This document shows positions 21,918 to 32,308 of a stretch of 64,000 nucleotides of DNA, one piece after another. Source of the stretch: Escherichia coli (lineage in GTDB: Bacteria; Pseudomonadota; Gammaproteobacteria; Enterobacterales; Enterobacteriaceae); assembly GCF_050920415.1 (NCBI RefSeq), contig NZ_CP169309.1; one strand, given 5' to 3'. The position numbers were made by a program, and so were the translations under genes. Every line of letters begins with the position of its first letter. The stretch's first letter is position 1. The notes below the pieces were generated by a model, which was not told where the DNA came from, ran no database searches, and saw only the letters and a list, made by a program, of their open reading frames with translations.

Positions 21918-23250
<1,333 letters not shown>

Positions 23251-23268
23251 AACTTAGTTCGTTTTAAA

Positions 23269-23296
23269 GATTCTGCAGACACTGTCTGCAGAATTC
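23269..23296. repeat. Palindromic unit GATTCTGCAGAC-ACT-GTCTGCAGAATTC (fourth copy of the yhcG-internal repeat family), between convergent nanQ and yhcG
   Basis: Near-perfect 12-13 bp inverted arms around CAGAC-ACT-GTCTG; same core as repeats at 24031-24135. Confidence 0.75.
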
Positions 23297-23309
23297 GAAA
23301 CCGCTGAAA

Positions 23310-24437
23310 TTAACGGCGTCTATAGCCTTCCTCTAGCACCGCTTGTGTTCGAACGAGTTCATCCGCGAGTCGTTTTTCATCAGGTAGTTGCATCTTATAT
23401 TCGCTTGCCAGAACGGTGTTAGGCAAACCAGCCAGTGCATAATGTGCTTCTCCGACTCCTTTTTCTGCACAGAGAACCAGACCGATGGGCGGATTTTCAT
23501 CCGGTAGCGTCCAGTGCTCTTTGGCGTAGTTGAGATACATATTCATCTGTCCGGCATCGCTATAGCTGAATTTGCCCACTTTTAGATCGACGATTAGCAG
23601 GCAGCGTAAACGGCGGTGGAAAAACAGCAGATCGACACGAAACCAGTTGTCATCAATGCGTAACCTTCGCTGTCGACCAACAAAGGCAAAATCATCCCCA
23701 AGTTCCAGCATGAAATCCATCAGGTGGTTGATCAGCGCCTCCTCAAAATCGGATTCTGAGTATTCATCTTTCAATTCCAAAAATTCGAGCACAAAGGGAT
23801 CGCGTATCGCCTGTTGCGGAAGAATATGCGTCTCGGCAGGGGCGTGTTGTTGCAGCATGGCTGATTTGTCATATGACAGTAGTGTCCGCTCATAAAATTG
23901 GGTCGCAATTTGCCGCTCTAGCTGGCGGACAGACCAACCACAGCGGAGCGCCTCTTTTTCATAAAAGCTGCGGGCGTCAGCGTTTTTAACGGAAAGTAGA
24001 CGGACGTAGGTGGACCAGGGCAGTGGGAAGGATTTGGCAGACAGCGTCTGCCAAATCTTTGCCGATGGGAATTCTGCAGACGGTGTCTGCGGAATTCCCA
24101 ATGGTGTTAATTCGCCAGACACTGTCTGGCGAATTTCAACATGTTGAAAAAAGAGGTAAAAAAGCCTCATTTGGCGTAAGTTTTTTGCAGAGAACCCACG
24201 CTTATACCTTAGACTTAAATCCTTTGAGAGCCGTTTGATAAGCTGTGCACCATAAGCCGCTCTGGCCTCGCCGCCTTGTTCAAATTCGACAATCCGTCGA
24301 CCAATTTCCCAGTATGTCGCGGTCATTAACGCGTTAACGCTACGTACCGTTTCCGTGCGGGCGCTATCGACCAGGTGAATAATACCGTCGTGGATTTGCT
24401 GGTAGCCTGCTGTGGTTCCTTCTGAGAGCGATTCCAT
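23310..24437 (-). CDS. yhcG: DUF1016/YhcG-family protein with C-terminal PD-(D/E)xK nuclease-like motifs
   Basis: 375-aa ORF; C-terminal ...RIDDNWFRVDLLFF...LLIVDLKVGKF resembles a PD-(D/E)xK core; contains in-frame tandem repeats (IRQTVSGELTPLG / IPQTPSAEFPSAK / IWQTLSAKSFPLPW). Confidence 0.85.
   Translation of the reverse strand: MESLSEGTTAGYQQIHDGIIHLVDSARTETVRSVNALMTATYWEIGRRIVEFEQGGEARAAYGAQLIKRLSKDLSLRYKRGFSAKNLRQMRLFYLFFQHVEIRQTVSGELTPLGIPQTPSAEFPSAKIWQTLSAKSFPLPWSTYVRLLSVKNADARSFYEKEALRCGWSVRQLERQIATQFYERTLLSYDKSAMLQQHAPAETHILPQQAIRDPFVLEFLELKDEYSESDFEEALINHLMDFMLELGDDFAFVGRQRRLRIDDNWFRVDLLFFHRRLRCLLIVDLKVGKFSYSDAGQMNMYLNYAKEHWTLPDENPPIGLVLCAEKGVGEAHYALAGLPNTVLASEYKMQLPDEKRLADELVRTQAVLEEGYRRR
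24031..24135. repeat. Three tandem 39-bp-spaced palindromic repeats inside yhcG coding sequence
   Basis: Units GATTTGGCAGACAGCGTCTGCCAAATC (24031-24057), GGGAATTCTGCAGACGGTGTCTGCGGAATTCCC (24068-24099), AATTCGCCAGACACTGTCTGGCGAATT (24109-24135); period 39 bp = 13 codons. Confidence 0.8.
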
Positions 24438-24635
24438 TATCTGTCCCTTTATATGGCGCTGCGTTGAATAATGGGATCAGCTATACGCCGGGCATCTGCC
24501 GGTAACAATCCAGGTGGGCTTGTTACATGGGTTTTCTTCACGTTATGCGAGGCGCTTTCCAGCAATTGTGCTGTAACGTTGTGCTGAAGATGAAGCAAAT
24601 AAAAAGGCCGGAGCGGGCGCATCCGACCAGAATTT

Positions 24636-25805
24636 TCAGGAAGTTTCTCTTGCTGTCACTACGCCATTTTGCGCAGCCCACAGATTCACATCTTCCTTAC
24701 GAATGGCGGCGGCCATCATGCCGGGGAATAAATCAGGGGTACAGGCAAAGGAGGGAATACCCATGGCGGCGAGTTTTCCTGCCAGTGACCGGTCGTAAAA
24801 CGGTGCGCCTTCGTCGCTTAAGGCCAGCAGGGTAACCACCTGTACGCCGGACTGAATCAACTCACTGGCGCGTTGCAACAGATTGCGTTCCACACCACCT
24901 TCGTAGAGGTCGGAAATCAGCACCAGAATGGTATTACGCGGATCGCGAATCAAAGACTGGCAGTAACCTACCGCGCGGTTGATGTCGGTGCCGCCGCCCA
25001 GCTGCACGCCAAACAGCAGCTCTACCGGATCGTCGAGCTTCTCTGTCATATCAACCACTGCGGTGTCGAAAACCACCAGATGCGTTTTTACCGCCGGGAG
25101 CGATGCCATTACTGCGCCAAAAATACTGGAATAGACCACCGAGGAGGCCATCGACCCACTCTGGTCGATACATAAAATGATCTCCTTTTGCGTGCGTTGA
25201 GACTTGCGCCCGTAGCCGATTAACGTTTCAGGAACAATACTTTTGTACTCTTCCTGCCAGTGGCGCAGGTTGGCGCGAATGGTGCGCTGCCAGTCAATTT
25301 CCGCGTGGCGCGGGCGACGATTACGTACCGCACGATTAAGAGCGCCGCTTACCGCGCTACGCATTGGCTCTTCAAGCTGTTTCATCAATTGCTCGACAAC
25401 TTTACGCACCACAATCCTGGCGGTTTCTTTGGTTTTGGCCGGAATTACGCCATTCAGCGACATCAGCGTGGAGACCAGATGAACATCAGGCTGGACGTTT
25501 GCCAGCATCTCTGGCTCCAGCAACATACTGTGCAAATTAAGACGTTCAAAGGCGTCTTTTTGCATCACCTGAACCACAGAAGAGGGGAAATACTGGCGAA
25601 TATCACCCAGCCAGCGAGCGACTTTGGGTGACGATCCACCCGTGCCGCCGCGTAATCCATGTTTACCGTCTGGCTGATAGAGCGCCGCCAGCGCGGCATC
25701 AATCGCGGACTCTCTGGCATCCAGCGCCACGTTACAGGCATTGTCGGCATCTTCTCCAAGGATCAGACGCCAGCGGCGCAGCCGTTCCATCTCGTTACTC
25801 GACAT
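24636..25805 (-). CDS. von Willebrand factor A (vWA) domain protein with MIDAS motif; YehP-like
   Basis: 389-aa ORF; DxSxS MIDAS motif in ILCIDQSGSM; last gene of the five-gene operon; overlaps upstream gene by 11 nt; SD-like GGGAA before ATG. Confidence 0.8.
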   Translation of the reverse strand: MSSNEMERLRRWRLILGEDADNACNVALDARESAIDAALAALYQPDGKHGLRGGTGGSSPKVARWLGDIRQYFPSSVVQVMQKDAFERLNLHSMLLEPEMLANVQPDVHLVSTLMSLNGVIPAKTKETARIVVRKVVEQLMKQLEEPMRSAVSGALNRAVRNRRPRHAEIDWQRTIRANLRHWQEEYKSIVPETLIGYGRKSQRTQKEIILCIDQSGSMASSVVYSSIFGAVMASLPAVKTHLVVFDTAVVDMTEKLDDPVELLFGVQLGGGTDINRAVGYCQSLIRDPRNTILVLISDLYEGGVERNLLQRASELIQSGVQVVTLLALSDEGAPFYDRSLAGKLAAMGIPSFACTPDLFPGMMAAAIRKEDVNLWAAQNGVVTARETS

Positions 25806-28044
25806 GATTTTCCCTTTCGTGTGGTGGCAAAGCCAGAATGCGGCGCAGTAGCGGCAGCATTAACGCGGCACGCTGTTCATCCCATATACCGCTGGTCTCT
25901 TCTTGCTGCGCGACACGCTCGCCCTGCGCGGCGCGTTCGCCTAACTGGCGGCGTTCCGGGCTGGAAAAACGGCCGAATGTCCGCCGCAGCATCGGCAGGA
26001 TCCGGGTGAAGTGATTGTCGTTCAGGCCGCTTAGCCAGGCATCGATCAACTGCCATAATTCGCTATTGTGCAGTAGCACCATCGCGCTGTCGTTGAGGAA
26101 ACCTTCCGCCCATGCGGCACTTTCCGCCGGGGGATTGGCTGGCGATAGCGCCAGGTTCATCAGCGTGGTGATCCGTTCTGTCGTTAACGTTTGCAGATCA
26201 AACAACAGGCGCGTCGCCGTTCCGCGAAGCAGCGCGTGTGCGGTACTGCCCTCTGCCAGCACCATCAACGCCTGCAACCAGCCCGCCAACAGATCTTCGT
26301 TATCCAGCAACCGCAGCGCGGCGTGAGCGTCGATAACTTTTTCTCTCATACTGGCGGCGCTGTCGTCGTTGAGCGCCGAACAGGCACCGGGTAGGGCGAT
26401 GGCGGCGCGCGGGGCGAGGCTCATCAGTACCTGCATTACCATACCAGAGTCGGTCTGGCGCACGTTGCCGTAGCGGACAATCGCCACCAGCGGTGCCAGG
26501 GCTTCCAGCAACTGTTCGATATTGCCCTGAGTGGCAGCCAGTGATTCCAGTGTATTGGCGATGGGGGCAATCGCGGCCTGTAAATCGGCCAGTAGCACTT
26601 GTTGGATAAGCTTTGCCAGTTCCGGCAGCGTGCTGGCGTATTGCGCCCTCACAATGGCATAGCGGGAGCTGGCCTGCTCAATGCTGTTACCCCAACGGCT
26701 GGCGGTAATGATGTTCATTGCCAGTGCCGGTTCCCAGCGCAGCGACCAGACTTCGTGGAACGTCCCTTTGCTGTTATTTCCTTGTCCAGCCAGACGGCCC
26801 CAGGAAATGTCGAGTAAGGTCAGGCGATGCAGTAAATGGCTACGCGCCAGATCGCCGGGTTTGCGCAGATCAAGATCCAGCACTTTTTCGCTGGCTTCTG
26901 CCTTCAGGCGCAGCGTTTTTTGCTGTTGCGTAATGTCGCGTTGGAGCGGCACGACGGGCGTATCATCCGGTACGCTTCCCAGCGCGTCGCCGACAATTAA
27001 CTTCTGGCGAATCATCTGCATTGGCGCGCTTTCGCCCATACACACTACGGTTTGCAGCGCTTCGCAAAGTTCGTCAAGCCCCGGCTGCGGGTGATGGCGC
27101 ATAATCGCCAGCGTCTGCGCCAGCCGCGCCGCTTCGATAATGTGGGCGCTGGAACAGTCGAGATCGGCTTCGCGAAACAGCCTTGCCGCGCGTGACAGCC
27201 AGCCGATATCGCGGTGAGAAGCGCCCTGATAACGCCACAGATGATCGTACCATTCCGGTGACACCACCCCTGCGCCATAACCGCTGGCGCGGCTTAACGC
27301 CTCGTAGCTCCAGGGCGTCCAGGCTGCCGCGACCTTGCACTTCGGCAAATTTTTCAGCAGTTCGTTATCATTCTTTGCGGGCGGCAGGTTTTCCAGCGCC
27401 GGAACGTGCCACGCACCGCAGACTACCGCGATGCGCGAGAAGCCCTCTTTTTTCGCCTGACGTAGCGTCTTGCGCATATACGCTTCACGCAGTTGATCTC
27501 TGGCTGAGTTTCGGGCTTCGGGAGTTGCCTGGCGTAGGGCAATCATCGCCTCGCGAATCGCCTCGAACAGAGACAAATCATCTTCGCGTTCCTCTACTCT
27601 GTGGCTCCACCAGCTTTCCCCATCGGTGTAACCGGCGGCGCGGCCCAGCCAGTCCAGCGGATCGCCGTCGGGACTGGCTTCAACGGCATCATCGTCATCG
27701 CTCTCTTTTTCGTCATCAAGCGCGAACTGATGACTGATGGGCAAGTCCATAAAGCGCACGGCGATATTTTGCTCAAAACCATAGCGCAGCGCCTGCCATT
27801 CCGGGGAGAACGCCGCAAAGGGGTAAAACGCGGCGTGATGTGAGTCGTCCGGGGCATAAATCAGTAGCGCGACCGGCGGTTGCATCTGTTCATGCTGCAT
27901 GAAAGGCAGGATGGATTCGCCGTCGGGCGGCCCTTCCACCAGCAGGCAGTCGGGCTGTAGCGTCTCCAGCGCCTTTCGCAGGCTGCGCGCGCAGCCAGGG
28001 CCATGGTGACGGATGCCAAACAAATGAACGGTTTGTTCAGTCAT
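25795..28044 (-). CDS. Large uncharacterised protein (749 aa) with N-terminal TraB/PrgY/GumN (TIKI)-like motifs; YehM-like by size and position
   Basis: N-terminal VHLFGIRHHGPG...DCLLVEGPPD and later RIAVVCGAWHVPAL resemble the two conserved motif blocks of the TraB/TIKI family; long helical C-terminal region; domain call from motif recognition only. Confidence 0.7.
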   Translation of the reverse strand: MTEQTVHLFGIRHHGPGCARSLRKALETLQPDCLLVEGPPDGESILPFMQHEQMQPPVALLIYAPDDSHHAAFYPFAAFSPEWQALRYGFEQNIAVRFMDLPISHQFALDDEKESDDDDAVEASPDGDPLDWLGRAAGYTDGESWWSHRVEEREDDLSLFEAIREAMIALRQATPEARNSARDQLREAYMRKTLRQAKKEGFSRIAVVCGAWHVPALENLPPAKNDNELLKNLPKCKVAAAWTPWSYEALSRASGYGAGVVSPEWYDHLWRYQGASHRDIGWLSRAARLFREADLDCSSAHIIEAARLAQTLAIMRHHPQPGLDELCEALQTVVCMGESAPMQMIRQKLIVGDALGSVPDDTPVVPLQRDITQQQKTLRLKAEASEKVLDLDLRKPGDLARSHLLHRLTLLDISWGRLAGQGNNSKGTFHEVWSLRWEPALAMNIITASRWGNSIEQASSRYAIVRAQYASTLPELAKLIQQVLLADLQAAIAPIANTLESLAATQGNIEQLLEALAPLVAIVRYGNVRQTDSGMVMQVLMSLAPRAAIALPGACSALNDDSAASMREKVIDAHAALRLLDNEDLLAGWLQALMVLAEGSTAHALLRGTATRLLFDLQTLTTERITTLMNLALSPANPPAESAAWAEGFLNDSAMVLLHNSELWQLIDAWLSGLNDNHFTRILPMLRRTFGRFSSPERRQLGERAAQGERVAQQEETSGIWDEQRAALMLPLLRRILALPPHERENHVE

Positions 28045-28061
28045 AGTGGTTGCCTTGCTGA

Positions 28062-29156
28062 TTACACAATTTCGCGGCAGGCGCGATAGAGATCGTTCCA
28101 GTCGCTGCGCTCTTTGACGATAGTTTCCAGATATTCACGCCATACCACGTCGTCCTGCACGGGATCTTTTACCACCGCGCCGATAAGGCTTGCGGCGATA
28201 TCCCGCGGATGCAGCACGCCGTCGCCAAAATGGCCCGCCAGCGCCATACCGTTGTTGATAACGGAGATCGCCTCCGCGGTGCTGAGAGTACTGGTTGGCG
28301 ACTTAATTTTCGTTTTGCCGTCAACCGTCAGGCCGTTTCGCAGTTCGCGGAAGATTTGCACGACTCGCTGGATCTCTTTAAGCGCTGGCGGTTTGGCAGG
28401 AAGTGCCAGCGCCTGACCCAGTTCGGCGACGCGGCGAGTGACAATGTTAATCTCTTCTTCTTCGCTGGCGGGTACGGGCAAAATGACCGTGTTGAAACGA
28501 CGTTTAAGCGCGGAAGAAAGCTCGTTAACGCCTTTATCCCGGTTGTTGGCGGTGGCGATAACGTTAAAGCCGCGCGTCGCCTGGACCTCTTCATTCAGTT
28601 CGGGGATAGGCAGCGTTTTTTCCGACAGGATCGTGATCAGCGTGTCCTGAACATCAGCAGGAATACGCGTCAGCTCTTCTACGCGTGCAATCTGCCCGCG
28701 CGCCATCGCCCGCATCAACGGACTTTCTACCAGCGCCAAACGTGACGGACCTTTAGAGAGCAACTCCGCGTAGTTCCAGCCATAACGCATTTGTTCTTCA
28801 CCGGTGCCTGCGGTGCCCTGAATAATTAACGTTGAGTCGCCGCTGATGGCAGCCGCCAGATGTTCAGATACCCAGGATTTCGCAGTGCCGGGTACGCCAT
28901 ACAACAGCAGTGCGCGATCGGTTGGCAGCGTGGCAACGGCGGTTTCGATAATCCGCCGGTTGCCGATATATTTCGGCGTGACCTCAAAGCCATTTTCCAG
29001 CTGCCCGCCCAACAGATAGGTGGCGACGGACCATGGAGAAATGGCCCAGTTTTCCGGGCGCGGATGAGTATCGTTTTTTTGCAGCTCATCCAGTTCTTCA
29101 GCAAATTGTTGTTCGGCATGTCGGCGTAAAACGGCGGCAGTAGCGGTAGCATTCAT
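28062..29156 (-). CDS. MoxR-type AAA+ ATPase (YehL-like)
   Basis: 364-aa ORF; Walker A GVPGTAKS; sensor-1-like FNVIATANNRD; ATGA overlap with upstream gene. Confidence 0.82.
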   Translation of the reverse strand: MNATATAAVLRRHAEQQFAEELDELQKNDTHPRPENWAISPWSVATYLLGGQLENGFEVTPKYIGNRRIIETAVATLPTDRALLLYGVPGTAKSWVSEHLAAAISGDSTLIIQGTAGTGEEQMRYGWNYAELLSKGPSRLALVESPLMRAMARGQIARVEELTRIPADVQDTLITILSEKTLPIPELNEEVQATRGFNVIATANNRDKGVNELSSALKRRFNTVILPVPASEEEEINIVTRRVAELGQALALPAKPPALKEIQRVVQIFRELRNGLTVDGKTKIKSPTSTLSTAEAISVINNGMALAGHFGDGVLHPRDIAASLIGAVVKDPVQDDVVWREYLETIVKERSDWNDLYRACREIV

Positions 29157-30757
29157 AAAGTGGTTTCTCCGACAAAAAGCGAATTAAGTTGAATTCGGTT
29201 CGCCAGCGCGGCGCTCAGGGCAGTAAAGGCTGCCTCGCAATAAGGCGTTTGTTGTGCGTCGTGCGGCCACTTGTCAATGACATCATTGAGGACTTCGGGG
29301 GCCAGCAGGCAGGCGAAATCACTCATCACATGGCGCAGGGCGTAGTCAAAGCGCGCGGAATCATATTTCACCCAACGGTGTAGCTCCGTGACCATTTGCT
29401 GGCTCAGGCGCAGGCTAAAGAGCGACGCATCCAGCGGTAACAGGCTGATGTAGCGATGTAAATGTTCGCCGCCCACCACTGAGAACAATGACCGTAACAT
29501 CGGCTCGTGTTCTTCTACAGGCAGACATTGCAAAAGCTCAAAGGCGTTAATCTTCACGCCTGCAGGATGATGAATGCTCATTCCGACGGGCAGCATGGCG
29601 AGAAACGCCTGCGCCCACTGCGGATTTTTTTCGCGCAGTACGGCGTGATACCAGGCGCGCAGTAGCGCCTTCTGCCAGTCGGTTTTCCCGGCCCAGCGCA
29701 GCAGTTCAACGGGGGTAGCCTGCAGTTGCGTTTGCCACCAGTCGAGCGGAACCGCTGCAACTATCTGATACAGCCACCATGCGCGCTGGCCCAACTTTTC
29801 GCCTTTGGGCTTAGTTTCTTCCAGCGCATCGGCCTTCCACTCTGGTAAGAACGCCTCCGGGGCATCAAGGGCGACGTGCAGCATTTTTTCTTTGCCGGAT
29901 AAGCCTTTTAGCCTTTCAAGTAAGGTCTCAGGAGCGGGGGATGAACTGAGCAACGGCGCTAACCGAGACTTCATGCGCGAGATCCAGGCGCTTTCCGGCA
30001 GACAACACAGTAACCGTGCCGCAGTTTGCCGCACCTCTTTGCTGCGATCGGATAATGTCTGTTCCAGAAAGGCTTCGTCGTGTTGGGAGATCTCCACTTC
30101 CAGCACAGCCAGCAGCTGTGCGCGTTCGCGGGCATCCAGCGAACTCATCTCCTGCGCCAGCCGATCGCGACCCTGTTCCGGGGCGCGAATGCGCATTTGC
30201 GTCAGATATTGCAGACGCTGTTCGGACGTGCCGTGCAGCCACATTTCTTCATCCAGCGGAGCGTCAACGGAGGCAAGAAAATAGCGCCAGTCGGCGTTAA
30301 TTTGCGCCAGCCAGCGCCCGCGAGCGCCGAGGACATTGGGCAGAATGCCGCGTATTGATGGATTTTGTACGCCGTAATTCAGCAGTGCCGGTAACAGCAG
30401 GGGCGGAGAAAGAAGCTGACGCTGGACCAGGTGATCAAGCGCTGACCACAGTAAACGCGGCGGCCCTTCTGCCAGCAACAGATGCAGCAGTCCCGCAAAA
30501 GCCGGGTTGTTTATTGGCTCGGCATTTTCTTTATCGATTTCCGGCAGCGGTGCGGGGTCAATCGCCTGCGGCACCCAGCCAGCCAGATGGCAGAGCGCCA
30601 GAACGCCCGCCGAGCGCAGTAGCTGTTGCTCTGCGGATGTGTTATTCGCCAGTTCAGACAGTAACAGCCCAATCTCACTTTGCGACGCCGACGGTGTGAA
30701 CGCTTTTTTGTCTGTGCCGAGTAGCGCTGTGCGGGTTAAATTTTGCCATTCGTTCAT
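29153..30757 (-). CDS. Uncharacterised protein (about 534 aa), helical, no recognised catalytic motif
   Basis: Long ORF (ORF track 29153-30778); preferred start ATG at 30757, which has GGAGG 7 nt upstream and forms an ATGA overlap with the stop of the SWIM gene. Confidence 0.7.
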   Translation of the reverse strand: MNEWQNLTRTALLGTDKKAFTPSASQSEIGLLLSELANNTSAEQQLLRSAGVLALCHLAGWVPQAIDPAPLPEIDKENAEPINNPAFAGLLHLLLAEGPPRLLWSALDHLVQRQLLSPPLLLPALLNYGVQNPSIRGILPNVLGARGRWLAQINADWRYFLASVDAPLDEEMWLHGTSEQRLQYLTQMRIRAPEQGRDRLAQEMSSLDARERAQLLAVLEVEISQHDEAFLEQTLSDRSKEVRQTAARLLCCLPESAWISRMKSRLAPLLSSSPAPETLLERLKGLSGKEKMLHVALDAPEAFLPEWKADALEETKPKGEKLGQRAWWLYQIVAAVPLDWWQTQLQATPVELLRWAGKTDWQKALLRAWYHAVLREKNPQWAQAFLAMLPVGMSIHHPAGVKINAFELLQCLPVEEHEPMLRSLFSVVGGEHLHRYISLLPLDASLFSLRLSQQMVTELHRWVKYDSARFDYALRHVMSDFACLLAPEVLNDVIDKWPHDAQQTPYCEAAFTALSAALANRIQLNSLFVGETTL

Positions 30758-32076
30758 TGTGCGCCTCCGGTTGCCCAAATCACGCTACCGGCAAGCCAGG
30801 CGCTACAGGGCGTCAGCTGCTGACCATCCCATTCCCCCATTAGCATAAACGGCGCGCCGCCGCTGGCCGCCAGTAACCGCCAACCCTCGTCCGACGACAG
30901 GTGCGTCGGTAAGTGCTGGCCCTGTGTCGAGACGAATCGCCAGCCGCTCTCGTGCGGGTAAATCAATATTTCGCTTACTCGCAGCGGCAGAGGCCATTGC
31001 CAGGGATTCGCGCTAAGCCGCTGCGCCATGTCATGCAGCGCGTCCGGGAGGGGTAATTCTGCAAGCGGGAATCTTTCACCGCGGGTAAACGGCTCCACAA
31101 TCCGCGCCCGTAGCGGTGATGCGCCAGGGAAAAAGGCAAGCGCGCCCTGGCAGACTTGCCCGGTGATAAAGTGCTGGGGAAAGTTTTTACCACCGTGTGA
31201 ATAGTCCAGCAGTAGCGCGGTGCGGTGGCTCTTTTCTCCGTACAGCCAGACCCGGCGTCGCCACAGATTATTCTCTTCTTGCGCGCTTTGGCCTAAGACC
31301 TGCCAGTTATCAAGGCAGGTTAGTCCGTCAGCGATGTCATGTTTATCCGGGGTTATTCCCAATGCTGCATGGAGATCGCTAAGTTGTGCCGGGGATAACA
31401 TTTGTTGCTGGCGCCAGGCGTCAATAATCAGCTGTAGCTGCCCCAGTTCTTTGCACAGGCTCGATGGCCATACCTCGGCGGTAGTAAAAAGAGTGGTCAG
31501 ATTGTTCAGGCGAGCGGCAATTCCCGGTAGTTGAGCGTCGACCATGCGGGCGGCGATCCCGGCAAAAGGCAACTGTTGTGCAGAGATCTGCGCCAGACCG
31601 TGGCGGATCAGGTCGTGCATCCACTGTTCGAGGAAATCCAGCCCCGCCGTCATTTTTTGGTTGCGTGCCGCTTCCCGTTTGGCGGCAGCCTGCGGGTCGG
31701 CAGCTTTTGCCTCAGCCTGCTCTTTCTTTTCTTCTTTGCGAACCGCTCGCTGCTGGCGCGAGGTTAGCCACTCGCTTACCCATTCCGGCGGCTCGCCAGC
31801 GGTGAAACTTGCGGTGTGTTGCACCTGGAGCAAAAGCAACGCAAGGCTATGTTTACAGGGGAATTTACGGCTGGGGCAGGAACATTTACAGGCCAGATCC
31901 TGCCTGTCGACCCGTACCTGATAAGGGCGGGAGCCGCTGCCTTTACATTCTCCCCAGAACGCGGTCTCGCTATATCCCAGCGTCGGCCATTTTGCGGGGG
32001 CAACCAGGCCACGAGCCGCTTTAACCGAGGCGTCATCGGGCGCCAGGGCTTGCACTGATTCAACGGTCAGTTCCAT
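30754..32076 (-). CDS. SWIM zinc-finger domain protein (YehQ-like), first gene of operon
   Basis: 440-aa ORF; CxCxnCxH signature in DLACKCSCPSRKFPCKHSLALL; remainder unrecognised. Confidence 0.75.
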   Translation of the reverse strand: MELTVESVQALAPDDASVKAARGLVAPAKWPTLGYSETAFWGECKGSGSRPYQVRVDRQDLACKCSCPSRKFPCKHSLALLLLQVQHTASFTAGEPPEWVSEWLTSRQQRAVRKEEKKEQAEAKAADPQAAAKREAARNQKMTAGLDFLEQWMHDLIRHGLAQISAQQLPFAGIAARMVDAQLPGIAARLNNLTTLFTTAEVWPSSLCKELGQLQLIIDAWRQQQMLSPAQLSDLHAALGITPDKHDIADGLTCLDNWQVLGQSAQEENNLWRRRVWLYGEKSHRTALLLDYSHGGKNFPQHFITGQVCQGALAFFPGASPLRARIVEPFTRGERFPLAELPLPDALHDMAQRLSANPWQWPLPLRVSEILIYPHESGWRFVSTQGQHLPTHLSSDEGWRLLAASGGAPFMLMGEWDGQQLTPCSAWLAGSVIWATGGAQ

Positions 32077-32239: not shown

Positions 32240-32298
32240 AGTTTTTCGGAAAAAGATAACTTTATCCCGTGTAACCCGTTTTAAGCGGGCTACACGGG
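32240..32298 (-). terminator. Putative terminator downstream of gltD
   Basis: Minus-strand hairpin CCCGTGTAGCCCGCTTAAAACGGGTTACACGGG 8 nt after gltD stop, followed after a spacer by a T5 run; U-tract not directly adjacent. Confidence 0.4.
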
Positions 32299-32308
32299 AG
32301 GCTGCAAT

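Follow-up and report, generated by a model that had tools for sequence, protein, structure and literature searches.

Palindromic units at the yhcG locus

In a 64,000-nucleotide (nt) stretch of Escherichia coli DNA from contig NZ_CP169309.1 (hereafter the window), the gene yhcG (23310–24437, minus strand) carries three short palindromic units inside its coding sequence, and a fourth lies between its stop codon and that of the convergent neighbour nanQ (yhcH; 22786–23250, plus strand, from annotation and the list of open reading frames, ORFs). YhcG is a 375-amino-acid (aa) PD-(D/E)XK nuclease of the DUF1016/YhcG family, as indicated by the presence of both Pfam domains (DUF1016_N, PF17761, E = 1e-41, residues 19–184; YhcG_C, PF06250, E = 2.9e-56, residues 208–360) and by its RefSeq name. 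The DUF1016_N match carries ~30 residues beyond the length of the model, and a linker placed between helix 84–96 and the 'FPLPWSTY' helix of this domain varies in length among homologues. The stretch coding for this variable linker (~residues 97–140; 24018–24149, minus strand, delimited from Pfam, AlphaFold2 and homologue lengths) holds units 1–3. AlphaFold2 models residues 97–125 as coil, with predicted local distance difference test (pLDDT) means of 46–59 for 10-residue blocks over residues 101–130, flanked by two confident helices of the N-terminal domain; the linker loop is predicted to be disordered.

The four units share the core CAGAC-N3-GTCTG, set in palindromes at 23270–23294, 24032–24056, 24071–24095 and 24110–24134. 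Exact matches to the pattern CAGACNNNGTCTG start at 23276, 24038, 24077 and 24116, with no fifth in the window; the chance expectation is 0.03, four matches were reached by none of 100 shuffles, and allowing one mismatch brought in merely two more sites, both unrelated. The units with this core, to which a preliminary description of the sequence had drawn attention, can therefore be taken as real. Its account of their arrangement was borne out as well: units 1–3 lie in frame inside yhcG with a start-to-start period of 39 bp and, on translation of the ORF, encode the peptides quoted there (...EIRQTVSGELTPLGIPQTPSAEFPSAKIWQTLSAKSFPLPW...), and unit 4 (GATTCTGCAGACACTGTCTGCAGAATTC) lies at 23269–23296 between the two stop codons, with the nanQ stop 19 nt before it and the yhcG stop 13 nt beyond.

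Unit 3, the first in the protein (24110–24134, minus strand; I-R-Q-T-V-S-G-E-L, ATTCGCCAGACACTGTCTGGCGAAT), has arms at 24109–24121 and 24123–24135 that are complementary at 13 of 13 positions, and is thus perfect over 24109–24135. Unit 2 (24071–24095, minus strand; I-P-Q-T-P-S-A-E-F, ATTCTGCAGACGGTGTCTGCGGAAT) is extendable to GGGAATTC.../...GAATTCCC (24067–24099) with a single mismatch, T.G on the plus strand and C.A on the sense strand. The arms of unit 1 (24032–24056, minus strand; I-W-Q-T-L-S-A-K-S, ATTTGGCAGACAGCGTCTGCCAAAT) can be extended to 24025–24042 and 24046–24063 with 89% complementarity over 18 nt, while those of the non-coding unit 4 (23270–23294; ATTCTGCAGACACTGTCTGCAGAAT) pair at 12 of 12 positions (23270–23281 with 23283–23294). 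All four come from the palindrome and pattern searches, joined by folding for units 1–3. The three bases that separate the ATT end from the core vary between units and between strains, always with matching changes in both arms (CTG/CAG, TGG/CCA and CGC/GCG in the window). The flanks had been described as GAATTC-like, which holds for the ends in their general form, (A/G)ATT...AAT(T/C), but GAATTC itself occurs in just two of the four units; with a family consensus of ATT...AAT (see below), an EcoRI site was dropped as the relevant feature.

Tandem Repeats Finder reported no array at a score of at least 30 at the yhcG units, because these are only ~60–76% alike overall and their likeness is mainly that of core and ends; they do not form a tandem repeat array in the usual sense. 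Folded as single-stranded DNA, the four units gave z-scores of -6.1 to -8.3 against shuffled sequence, and a 171-nt stretch of the yhcG messenger RNA (mRNA) folds into three strong hairpins (-69.7 kcal/mol, z = -8.1). A promoter and terminator scan called no canonical intrinsic terminator at any of the four units, and no U-tract stands behind them (the sequences after the stems are TTCGAAACC, TCTTTGCC, TCCCAATG and TTCAACAT), so that none qualifies as an intrinsic (Rho-independent) terminator. Nor do they belong to a curated RNA family with a match near the gathering score in Rfam 15: the search of window positions 22500–25000 in E-value mode returned a spurious microRNA match alone (22.7 bits against a gathering score of 100), and ten diverse DUF1016 loci searched at the gathering score gave no match.

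On the plus strand, the 71-aa ORF at 24023–24238 (MGRIWQTASAKS..., from the ORF list), previously remarked upon for its similar peptide, does exist. Because the units have palindromic symmetry, it is a mirror-image by-product of them and does not count as evidence of a gene.

One position and one reading frame across the DUF1016 family

A full HMMER search gave 24,608 DUF1016/YhcG cluster representatives at E ≤ 0.001. Between 'FYxxYP' and 'LSWSHY', many have the motif I-x-Q-T-x-S-x-x-[FLS] one to three times, and others have different repeated peptides there. At the DNA level 144 genes were analysed, retrieved with two peptide-pattern sets from one family alignment (A3). They comprise 79 genes from 80 DUF1016 loci taken by protein similarity alone (Bacteroidota, Verrucomicrobiota, Desulfobacterota, Cyanobacteria, Proteobacteria, Elusimicrobiota and others) and a replicate set of 65 distinct genes from viral contigs, down to ~28% protein identity; related sequences inflate some of the counts given below.

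Palindromes with arms of at least 11 bp and at most one mismatch numbered 63 in 23.7 kb of linker sequence (49 of the 79 genes), compared with none in 68 kb making up the remainder of the same genes and 29 in 212 kb of their flanks (0.14 per kb), where they are mostly terminator-like. A single reading frame is common to 62 of the 63 linker palindromes. The units conform to the consensus (A)ATT-N5-G-W-C-R-N-Y-G-W-C-N5-AAT(T), with a single central nucleotide and a length of 25–27 bp, and their cores vary by lineage with the arms changing together (CAGAC, CAGTC, GGAGTC, CGGTC, GGGAC, CCGAC, TCGAC, GGGTTG, GTATC, TCCGC). No unit was found in 21 of the 79 genes, one in 34, two in 20, three in 3 and four in 1. 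Every inter-unit spacing is a multiple of three, 36 being the most frequent (39 in E. coli), and copies within one gene are often identical or near-identical (loci L064, L022, L026 and L071).

An invariant three-copy protein motif lacking DNA palindromy, the outcome against which the preliminary description had set its own observation, is clearly not what this family displays, since copy number ranges from 0 to 4 and palindromy is pervasive in DUF1016 genes. From comparative sequence evidence we consider it very probable that an ancient nucleic-acid palindrome module is integral to DUF1016/YhcG genes, held at one position and in one frame (ATT = Ile) in 0–4 copies, with its pairing conserved and not its peptide. 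No Rfam family, solved structure or paper describing these palindromes was found in the databases and literature searched.

Units also occur outside the assigned ORFs. In L035 (Candidatus Dependentiae), four tandem units with a 36-bp period and the core CAGCC/GGCTG (1798–1930) lie inside a tblastn match (1501–2667), ~1 kb upstream of the ORF assigned to the gene. Single units at L034 2750–2774 (76 nt past the stop, in a Bacteroidales metagenome-assembled genome) and L044 3660–3684 (~1.07 kb downstream, Paraflavisolibacter) echo unit 4 of E. coli.

Conservation of base pairing rather than peptide

Because the first set of palindromes had been picked for being palindromic, we ran an anchor test that asked only for an in-frame ATT-N19-AAT and did not require interior pairing. 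In the genome set, the linker anchors (n = 101) had 6.70 of 8 interior pairs complementary, with at least 7 in 71 units, whereas the same anchor had 2.44 of 8 in the rest of the gene (n = 36) and 2.47 of 8 in the flanks (n = 161). The viral-contig replicate behaved in the same way, with 6.78 of 8 pairs for linker anchors (n = 45) and 2.1–2.8 for controls. When 104 anchor-defined units were aligned without gaps (A4), 89.5% of cells were paired compared with 67.2% after shuffling, a level reached by 0 of 500 shuffles. Both-side changes were present in 278 cells vs 102, the covariation score was 0.546 vs 0.166, and sliding the partner by 1–3 columns left 22–47% paired. Compensatory pairing above controls in two independent sets places the palindrome among conserved base-paired nucleic-acid elements.

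As the interior bases stay complementary, amino acids covary within the loop: R goes with G-E, V with A-Q, W with A-K and G with D-Q. Numbering the variable residues in order as I-x1-Q-T-x2-S-x3-x4, a Val at x1 (GTG) is accompanied by Gln (CAA), not Glu (GAA), at the residue after x3. A perfect palindrome predicts Glu, Lys or Gln at x4 for a first base of C, T or G in x1, an x3 codon starting with G, and a next residue whose codon starts with T. Among 62 distinct protein motifs from a library of 1.84 billion proteins, these pairings appeared in 9 of 11 (C with Glu), 7 of 11 (T with Lys) and 11 of 16 (G with Gln) cases; x3 was A, G, D, V or E in 59 of the 62, and S, L or F followed in 61.

One reading offered at the outset was that of a duplicated peptide motif, I-x-Q-T-x-S-x-E-F, conserved as protein, with the palindromy of the DNA incidental to it. 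QTxS does recur in many homologues, and almost all units are framed by Ile at one end and by F, L or S after the other. The peptide nevertheless changes freely between lineages while complementarity is kept: homologue loops are as different as IRQTVSGE, IRESLTPE, IVRSVTEQ, ILGLTTQE and IGQLPIAQ, and their differences track base complementarity. Codon usage points the same way, with the third position of the Ile codon being T in 61 of 66 units from the palindrome search alone and the Ser codon being TCT wherever the core is CAGAC. Furthermore, non-coding copies keep the palindrome, and the covariation of x1, x3 and x4 follows base pairing, not side-chain chemistry. Because of this covariation, and because the loop is predicted to be disordered, we reject the peptide motif as the cause and give it almost no credence.

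What is conserved, then, is the nucleic-acid palindrome, with the loop peptide its passenger, and the locus offers a clean natural case of nucleic-acid structure constraining protein sequence. As a practical warning, the 'QTxS repeat' of these proteins and the antisense ORF both result from DNA symmetry. The element is a conserved, structured one within a coding sequence, with an unusually clear covariation signal and an unusually wide distribution.

DNA-level symmetry or RNA hairpin

Among the mismatches in otherwise good units, read on the sense strand, G.U was not favoured over A.C (16 vs 27, p = 0.13, not significant), and the replicate, which is partly redundant and confounded by related sequences, gave 4 vs 13; these wobble counts weakly oppose a sense-RNA hairpin. 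The positions adjoining the centre cannot pair in a hairpin, the stability of which has no need of their complementarity, and here we counted A-T 49, G-C 13, A.C 12 and G.T 16 (odds ratio 3.3, p = 0.02). Taken together, wobble and centre complementarity incline us to DNA-level symmetry (a cruciform, a duplex site or the footprint of template switching) over a sense-mRNA hairpin selected for its stability.

A hairpin in the mRNA could still work with host machinery, by slowing ribosomes, altering message stability or terminating transcription early, and so limit a toxic nuclease, with unit 4 serving as a 3'-end hairpin. The three strong hairpins of the 171-nt stretch would fit this, as would the location of unit 4 between convergent genes, where a terminator or a 3'-end stabiliser is expected, and the single unit found between the nanQ and gltD stops in strains without yhcG. 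Yet G.U is not favoured, the units have no U-tract, canonical terminator or Rfam match, and their complementarity runs into the would-be loop. We regard such an mRNA-level role as rather improbable.

A different account dispenses with function altogether. At quasi-palindromes in E. coli, template switching (studied by Ripley and by the Lovett laboratory) copies one arm from the other, which yields compensated multi-base changes and perfect palindromes. Together with hairpin slippage, it could make, perfect, duplicate and delete palindromes in an unconstrained loop, from which only in-frame, stop-free versions survive; the element would be a passenger that perpetuates itself. The YhcG units resemble such hotspots in being near-perfect right up to the centre, even where pairing gives a hairpin no stability. 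The (near-)identical copies within L064, L022, L026 and L071 indicate recent duplication, copy number differs among close relatives, many homologues have no units, the loop is predicted to be disordered, and the mismatches show no strand asymmetry of the RNA type. However, the process acts at arbitrary sites and leaves unexplained the fixed position, the conserved ATT/AAT ends and inner G-W-C, and the restriction to DUF1016. Position and frame are the same down to ~28% protein identity and in many phyla, the other 68 kb of the same genes hold no comparable palindromes, and a neutral process is not expected to hold one site for so long or to stay within one family. Mutational drive of this kind is in our view unlikely, but it is the chief rival to the reading preferred below.

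Allelic variation and rearrangement in E. coli

The yhcG region is present in 5,078 of 5,426 complete E. coli genomes, with alleles of 349, 370, 375, 382 and 391 aa, of which the 375-aa form is the commonest (cluster P0002, 4,131 member sequences). Comparison of alleles for copy number, proposed in the preliminary description, was informative: L001 has a single unit, the 370- and 382-aa forms carry two or three, and the window and K-12 have three each. In Salmonella, Citrobacter and related genera, where the gltD-yhcG-nanQ order is kept, yhcG has a single unit, located in the Salmonella and Citrobacter orthologues where unit 3 sits in the window. This distribution argues strongly that one unit is the ancestral state and that the three-unit array of E. 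coli arose from it by in-frame tandem duplication. Further compensated arms are seen in other E. coli alleles (GTG/CAC and CTC/GAG, the latter in the non-coding unit 4 of strain MRY15-117), and in the orthologous unit of Salmonella (CCG/CGG) and Pseudocitrobacter (GTG/CAC).

Unit 4 shares homology with the region of the first unit in other yhcG alleles, and this goes past the palindrome itself, by ~14 nt upstream and ~10 nt downstream (FQRFRILQTVSAES in unit 4 vs FQRIEILQTLSAEF in the first-unit region, by allele comparison). In a 391-aa variant (P0009) the stop is read through in frame into unit 4, which there encodes ...ILQTLSGES.... Unit 4 is probably what remains of a DUF1016 linker fragment, and it may have found a second use as a 3'-end hairpin.

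Several rearrangements have their junctions at units. K-12 has a fifth unit just past the gltD stop, so that units flank the entire yhcG-gltF island, and strains without yhcG retain one unit between the nanQ and gltD stops. In strain LR-71-1 (L005), an IS1 insertion sequence is bounded by truncated units 1 and 5 (L005 2326–2341 and 3100–3135), and in strain tcmA_3 (L007) foreign DNA has taken the place of the C-terminal two-thirds of yhcG, with the junction falling precisely on the outer edge of unit 1 (L007 2015–2045). The 375- and 370-aa alleles (L002/L003) are 95–100% identical save over nt 210–540 (window ~23900–24230), where identity drops to 33–68%, which suggests that a segment centred on the palindromes is imported or fast-evolving. 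From these junctions, it is very probable that deletions, IS junctions and allelic replacements preferentially have their end-points at units, and the units help to explain why the nanQ-gltD interval is a rearrangement hotspot in E. coli.

It may be asked whether the palindromes are kept for this very purpose, as a hotspot at which the linker changes length in frame, alleles are exchanged and cassettes shuffled, so that a defence nuclease is diversified. A precedent is the type IC HsdS protein (EcoR124I / EcoR124II), in which in-frame copy-number change of a 12-bp (TAEL) repeat in the central region sets the spacer length of the recognition site. Both cases have in-frame copy-number variation of a short repeat in the linker of a protein from a restriction or defence locus; the HsdS repeats, however, are direct, not palindromic, and have a known effect. 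Alleles with one, two or three units and spacings in multiples of three, most often 36, would accord with a contingency module, and so would the divergence of the 375- and 370-aa alleles just around nt 210–540, the deletion, IS1 and replacement junctions, the unit-flanked yhcG-gltF island of K-12 and the unit kept by 'empty' strains. On the other hand, most genes have a single unit and cannot vary by slippage, simple direct repeats would do equally well, and breakpoints are expected from the general fragility of palindromes whatever their purpose. We consider a contingency role decidedly improbable.

The nanQ-gltD interval is a hypervariable island. Beside yhcG, the window holds genes for a von Willebrand factor type A (VWA) protein, a DUF5682 protein, an ATPase and a DUF5691 protein (24636–32076); K-12 (L010 type) has the fimbrial-type genes yhcF-yhcE-yhcD-yhcA-gltF in the same place, and some strains have one palindrome unit alone. 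After the gltD stop, where K-12 has a palindrome unit, the window carries another hairpin (cccgtgtaacccgttttaagcgggctacacggg, 32265–32300). The replacement segment of tcmA_3 carries a 101-aa ORF annotated 'transposase', without an NCBIfam match.

Units outside intact DUF1016 genes

A blastn search with a 35-nt unit against the 5,426 E. coli genomes, sensitive to near-identical sequences only, found no such copies outside the yhcG locus, and the further genomic copies that had been envisaged did not materialise. The number of matching places per genome was 1–5, with a median of 2 (both strands of a palindrome can give a match), and among the matches listed all 40 of the 40 rows with an annotated feature were yhcG or a DUF1016 gene, the remainder being unannotated DNA.

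Viral contigs were scanned for AATT-N3-CAGAC-N3-GTCTG-N3-AATT, which gave 27 units at 25 loci, all complementary at 11–13 of 13 positions although the N positions were free. Fourteen lie in intact DUF1016 ORFs, four in decayed DUF1016 genes (one each in L107 and L119, two in L120, where 'QTVSEEFRLSWSHYLVLMRIENINARNFYEIEAF' and the 3' end of the gene are still visible) and nine are solitary. A scan of the same contigs for units with a CAGTC core gave 0 matches, though that core is common in the genome set. The solitary units adjoin genes of mobile or defence type, among them a SocA-like antitoxin module, an integrase and a large recombinase-like ORF; other neighbouring ORFs look RhuM-like and AbiE-like by eye, SocA being the one match supported by a tool. 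The unit thus tends to persist when its gene is lost, or to sit where the deletions that destroy the gene begin or end.

Could the unit be a selfish small palindromic element, resembling the Rickettsia palindromic elements (RPEs) or miniature inverted-repeat transposable elements (MITEs), that invaded yhcG and spread locally? RPEs were reportedly described by Ogata et al. in 2000 as selfish palindromic DNA inserted in frame in protein genes. The likeness is that palindromic DNA is found within ORFs without disturbing the frame and gives the host protein an extra, tolerated peptide. RPEs, though, are ~100–150 bp long, presumed mobile and scattered within a single genus over numerous unrelated genes and intergenic regions, whereas the YhcG units measure 25–27 bp, keep to one protein family, one position and one frame across phyla, and are not dispersed in E. 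coli. A selfish origin could draw on the compatibility of the units with an ORF in both orientations, on the copies outside an ORF (unit 4, the gltD-adjacent unit and the L034 unit 76 nt past the stop), and on the nine solitary units between toxin-antitoxin and defence-type genes in viral contigs. It is opposed by the lack, at blastn sensitivity, of near-identical copies outside the yhcG locus in 5,121 E. coli genomes and of any others in the window, by the 14 of 27 scanned units in intact DUF1016 genes with four more in relics, and by the fixed position and frame in the family of an element of merely 25–27 bp without a transposition signature. We think such an origin very unlikely. Local spread, raised in the preliminary description, survives in a narrower form, in that the E. 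coli array is a local tandem expansion and the downstream copy probably derives from a linker fragment; the palindrome itself is ancient and family-wide, not a local element of E. coli.

Other dispersed families were set aside on the same grounds, since neither the blastn search of the 5,426 E. coli genomes nor the window gave the dispersal expected of repetitive extragenic palindromic (REP) sequences and bacterial interspersed mosaic elements (BIMEs), enterobacterial repetitive intergenic consensus (ERIC) sequences, RPE-like elements or MITEs. As for signs of mobility, copy-number polymorphism is present but fits tandem slippage, and no target-site duplications were seen. Integron attC sites are imperfect palindromes of 57–141 bp with R/L boxes and extrahelical bases, located at cassette boundaries with an intI integrase nearby, in contrast to near-perfect units of 25–27 bp in an ORF, and were rejected on this basis, the attC box motifs not having been explicitly searched; no integrase gene is annotated in the E. 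coli yhcG locus.

In AT-rich viral and prophage contigs, a module of the SocA-like antitoxin and a 126-aa ORF lies between direct repeats of >100 bp (L120 4700–4800 and 6020–6120; L119 10520–10610; L107 8770–8900), which are decayed DUF1016 fragments with two palindrome units; a tyrosine-integrase-like ORF is nearby. In L106 (9937–9986) two abutting units, AATTCATCAGACACTGTCTGATGAATTGGGCAGACGTTGTCTGCCCAATT, stand directly upstream of a 568-aa large-serine-recombinase-like ORF, with no DUF1016 remnant detected, and may be part of an attachment site. In L117, a contig of 61% G+C, an ORF for a clamp-loader-like ATPase (...RIFQTLSGKLEGAC*) has a solitary unit, AATTTTCCAGACACTGTCTGGAAAATT (3206–3232), as its 3' end, and this unit also overlaps with the beginning of the ORF that follows.

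A putative self-recognition element in a mobile nuclease gene

DUF1016/YhcG is a very large and widely transferred family, found in type I restriction-modification (R-M) operons, integrative conjugative elements, prophages and defence islands, and a base-paired element kept in its coding sequence across phyla, to the extent of dictating which residues occur together in the protein, points to a function or a partner at the nucleic-acid level. In PADLOC, residues 9–370 of YhcG match PDC-S02 (PDLC04807, E = 2.5e-135), a candidate single-gene anti-phage system, which makes YhcG a candidate defence protein. Foldseek groups its nuclease domain with Cas4-family proteins, MGME1 and NucS, a likeness that extends to the generic PD-(D/E)XK domain only. 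Foldseek matched nothing informative to the N-terminal domain, and a family-profile sequence search of the PDB found no solved DUF1016 homologue. The YhcG nuclease has been placed closest to archaeal Holliday-junction resolvases and YraN (Kosinski et al. 2005, PMC1189080). Deletion of yhcG is synthetically lethal with dnaB, dnaN and parE hypomorphs, and YhcG has been linked to replication intermediates, HsdMRS and McrABC (Hu et al. 2009, PMC2672614); DUF1016 genes are frequently embedded in type I R-M operons (PMC9881135).

We suggest that the palindrome would work in cis on the DNA itself, by forming a hairpin or cruciform, that its partner would be the structure-specific PD-(D/E)XK nuclease which the gene encodes, and that the outcome would be self-recognition or autogenous control of a potentially toxic enzyme. 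For a gene that would move horizontally as a single cassette through many phyla, the partner would have to be either universal host machinery or its own product. We favour the latter because it is the only specific factor that always travels with a mobile single gene. Universal machinery seems less likely, because the ends and the inner G-W-C are conserved and there are no terminator features and no sense-RNA signature. Taken whole, from the palindrome module itself to a DNA-level hairpin or cruciform recognised by its own nuclease, this reading is one that we hold tentatively, as a plausible account somewhat short of probable. YhcG may further have as its binding or cutting target either the hairpin or cruciform formed within yhcG or the equivalent hairpin of the yhcG transcript; gene and product would then make up a single-gene autoregulated defence or toxin module, which we judge possible but somewhat unlikely. 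A recognition site for a protein, or one recognised as a DNA structure, was among the readings of the preliminary description; it is compatible with all the evidence and is the one preferred here, while staying a matter of what we infer. If YhcG does recognise the palindrome of its own gene, one gene would carry both a structure-specific nuclease and its cis control or decoy site, the two moving as one unit across phyla, and the activity of YhcG would have left its traces in the solitary and relic units that border neighbouring genes.

Several points weigh against self-recognition by YhcG. Arms of 12–13 bp are short for a cruciform to extrude spontaneously in vivo. By the anchor test, the unit is missing from 21 of 79 and 28 of 65 genes (27–43%), and the element is therefore dispensable in many lineages. 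Units of one gene can have different cores (L040, L033/L039, L034), so that any recognition would be mainly structural. The wobble-asymmetry test (p = 0.13) is based on few, partly related sequences; template-switch correction of quasi-palindromes could keep the palindromes perfect without a selected function; and we infer YhcG as the partner from co-inheritance alone.

Two known arrangements are instructive for the self-recognition reading. In the REP/RAYT systems ('REPtrons'), short hairpin palindromes are likewise linked to the gene of an enzyme that works on nucleic acids and presumably on these palindromes, which is the logic proposed here for YhcG. REPs, however, are intergenic, present in hundreds of copies, marked by a conserved GTAG, and flank a Y1/HUH transposase gene, whereas the YhcG units are low-copy and lie inside the coding sequence of a PD-(D/E)XK nuclease. 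ToxIN, whose RNA repeats neutralise a nuclease toxin, is similar in having short tandem repeats (ToxI ~36 nt; here 36 most commonly and 39 in E. coli) linked to a nuclease gene in defence contexts, where binding of the repeat by the enzyme is possible in principle. It differs in that the ToxI repeats are non-palindromic, lie upstream of the toxin gene and form RNA pseudoknots on an RNase of the ToxN fold, whereas the YhcG units are palindromic, lie in the ORF, have no sense-RNA wobble signature and belong to a PD-(D/E)XK enzyme. With repeats in the ORF and a PD-(D/E)XK protein that is not of the ToxN/AbiQ fold, yhcG is not classed as a type III (ToxIN-like) toxin-antitoxin system. An operator for a controller protein or for a GntR-, CodY- or TetR-type regulator, considered for the intergenic units, was set aside as well, the units of one gene differing at positions that such proteins read.

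Upstream of yhcG, a stationary-phase transcript (G0-10703; PMC7967276) divergent from the gene overlaps its 5' region by 128 bp (window ~24438–24640) and misses the units.

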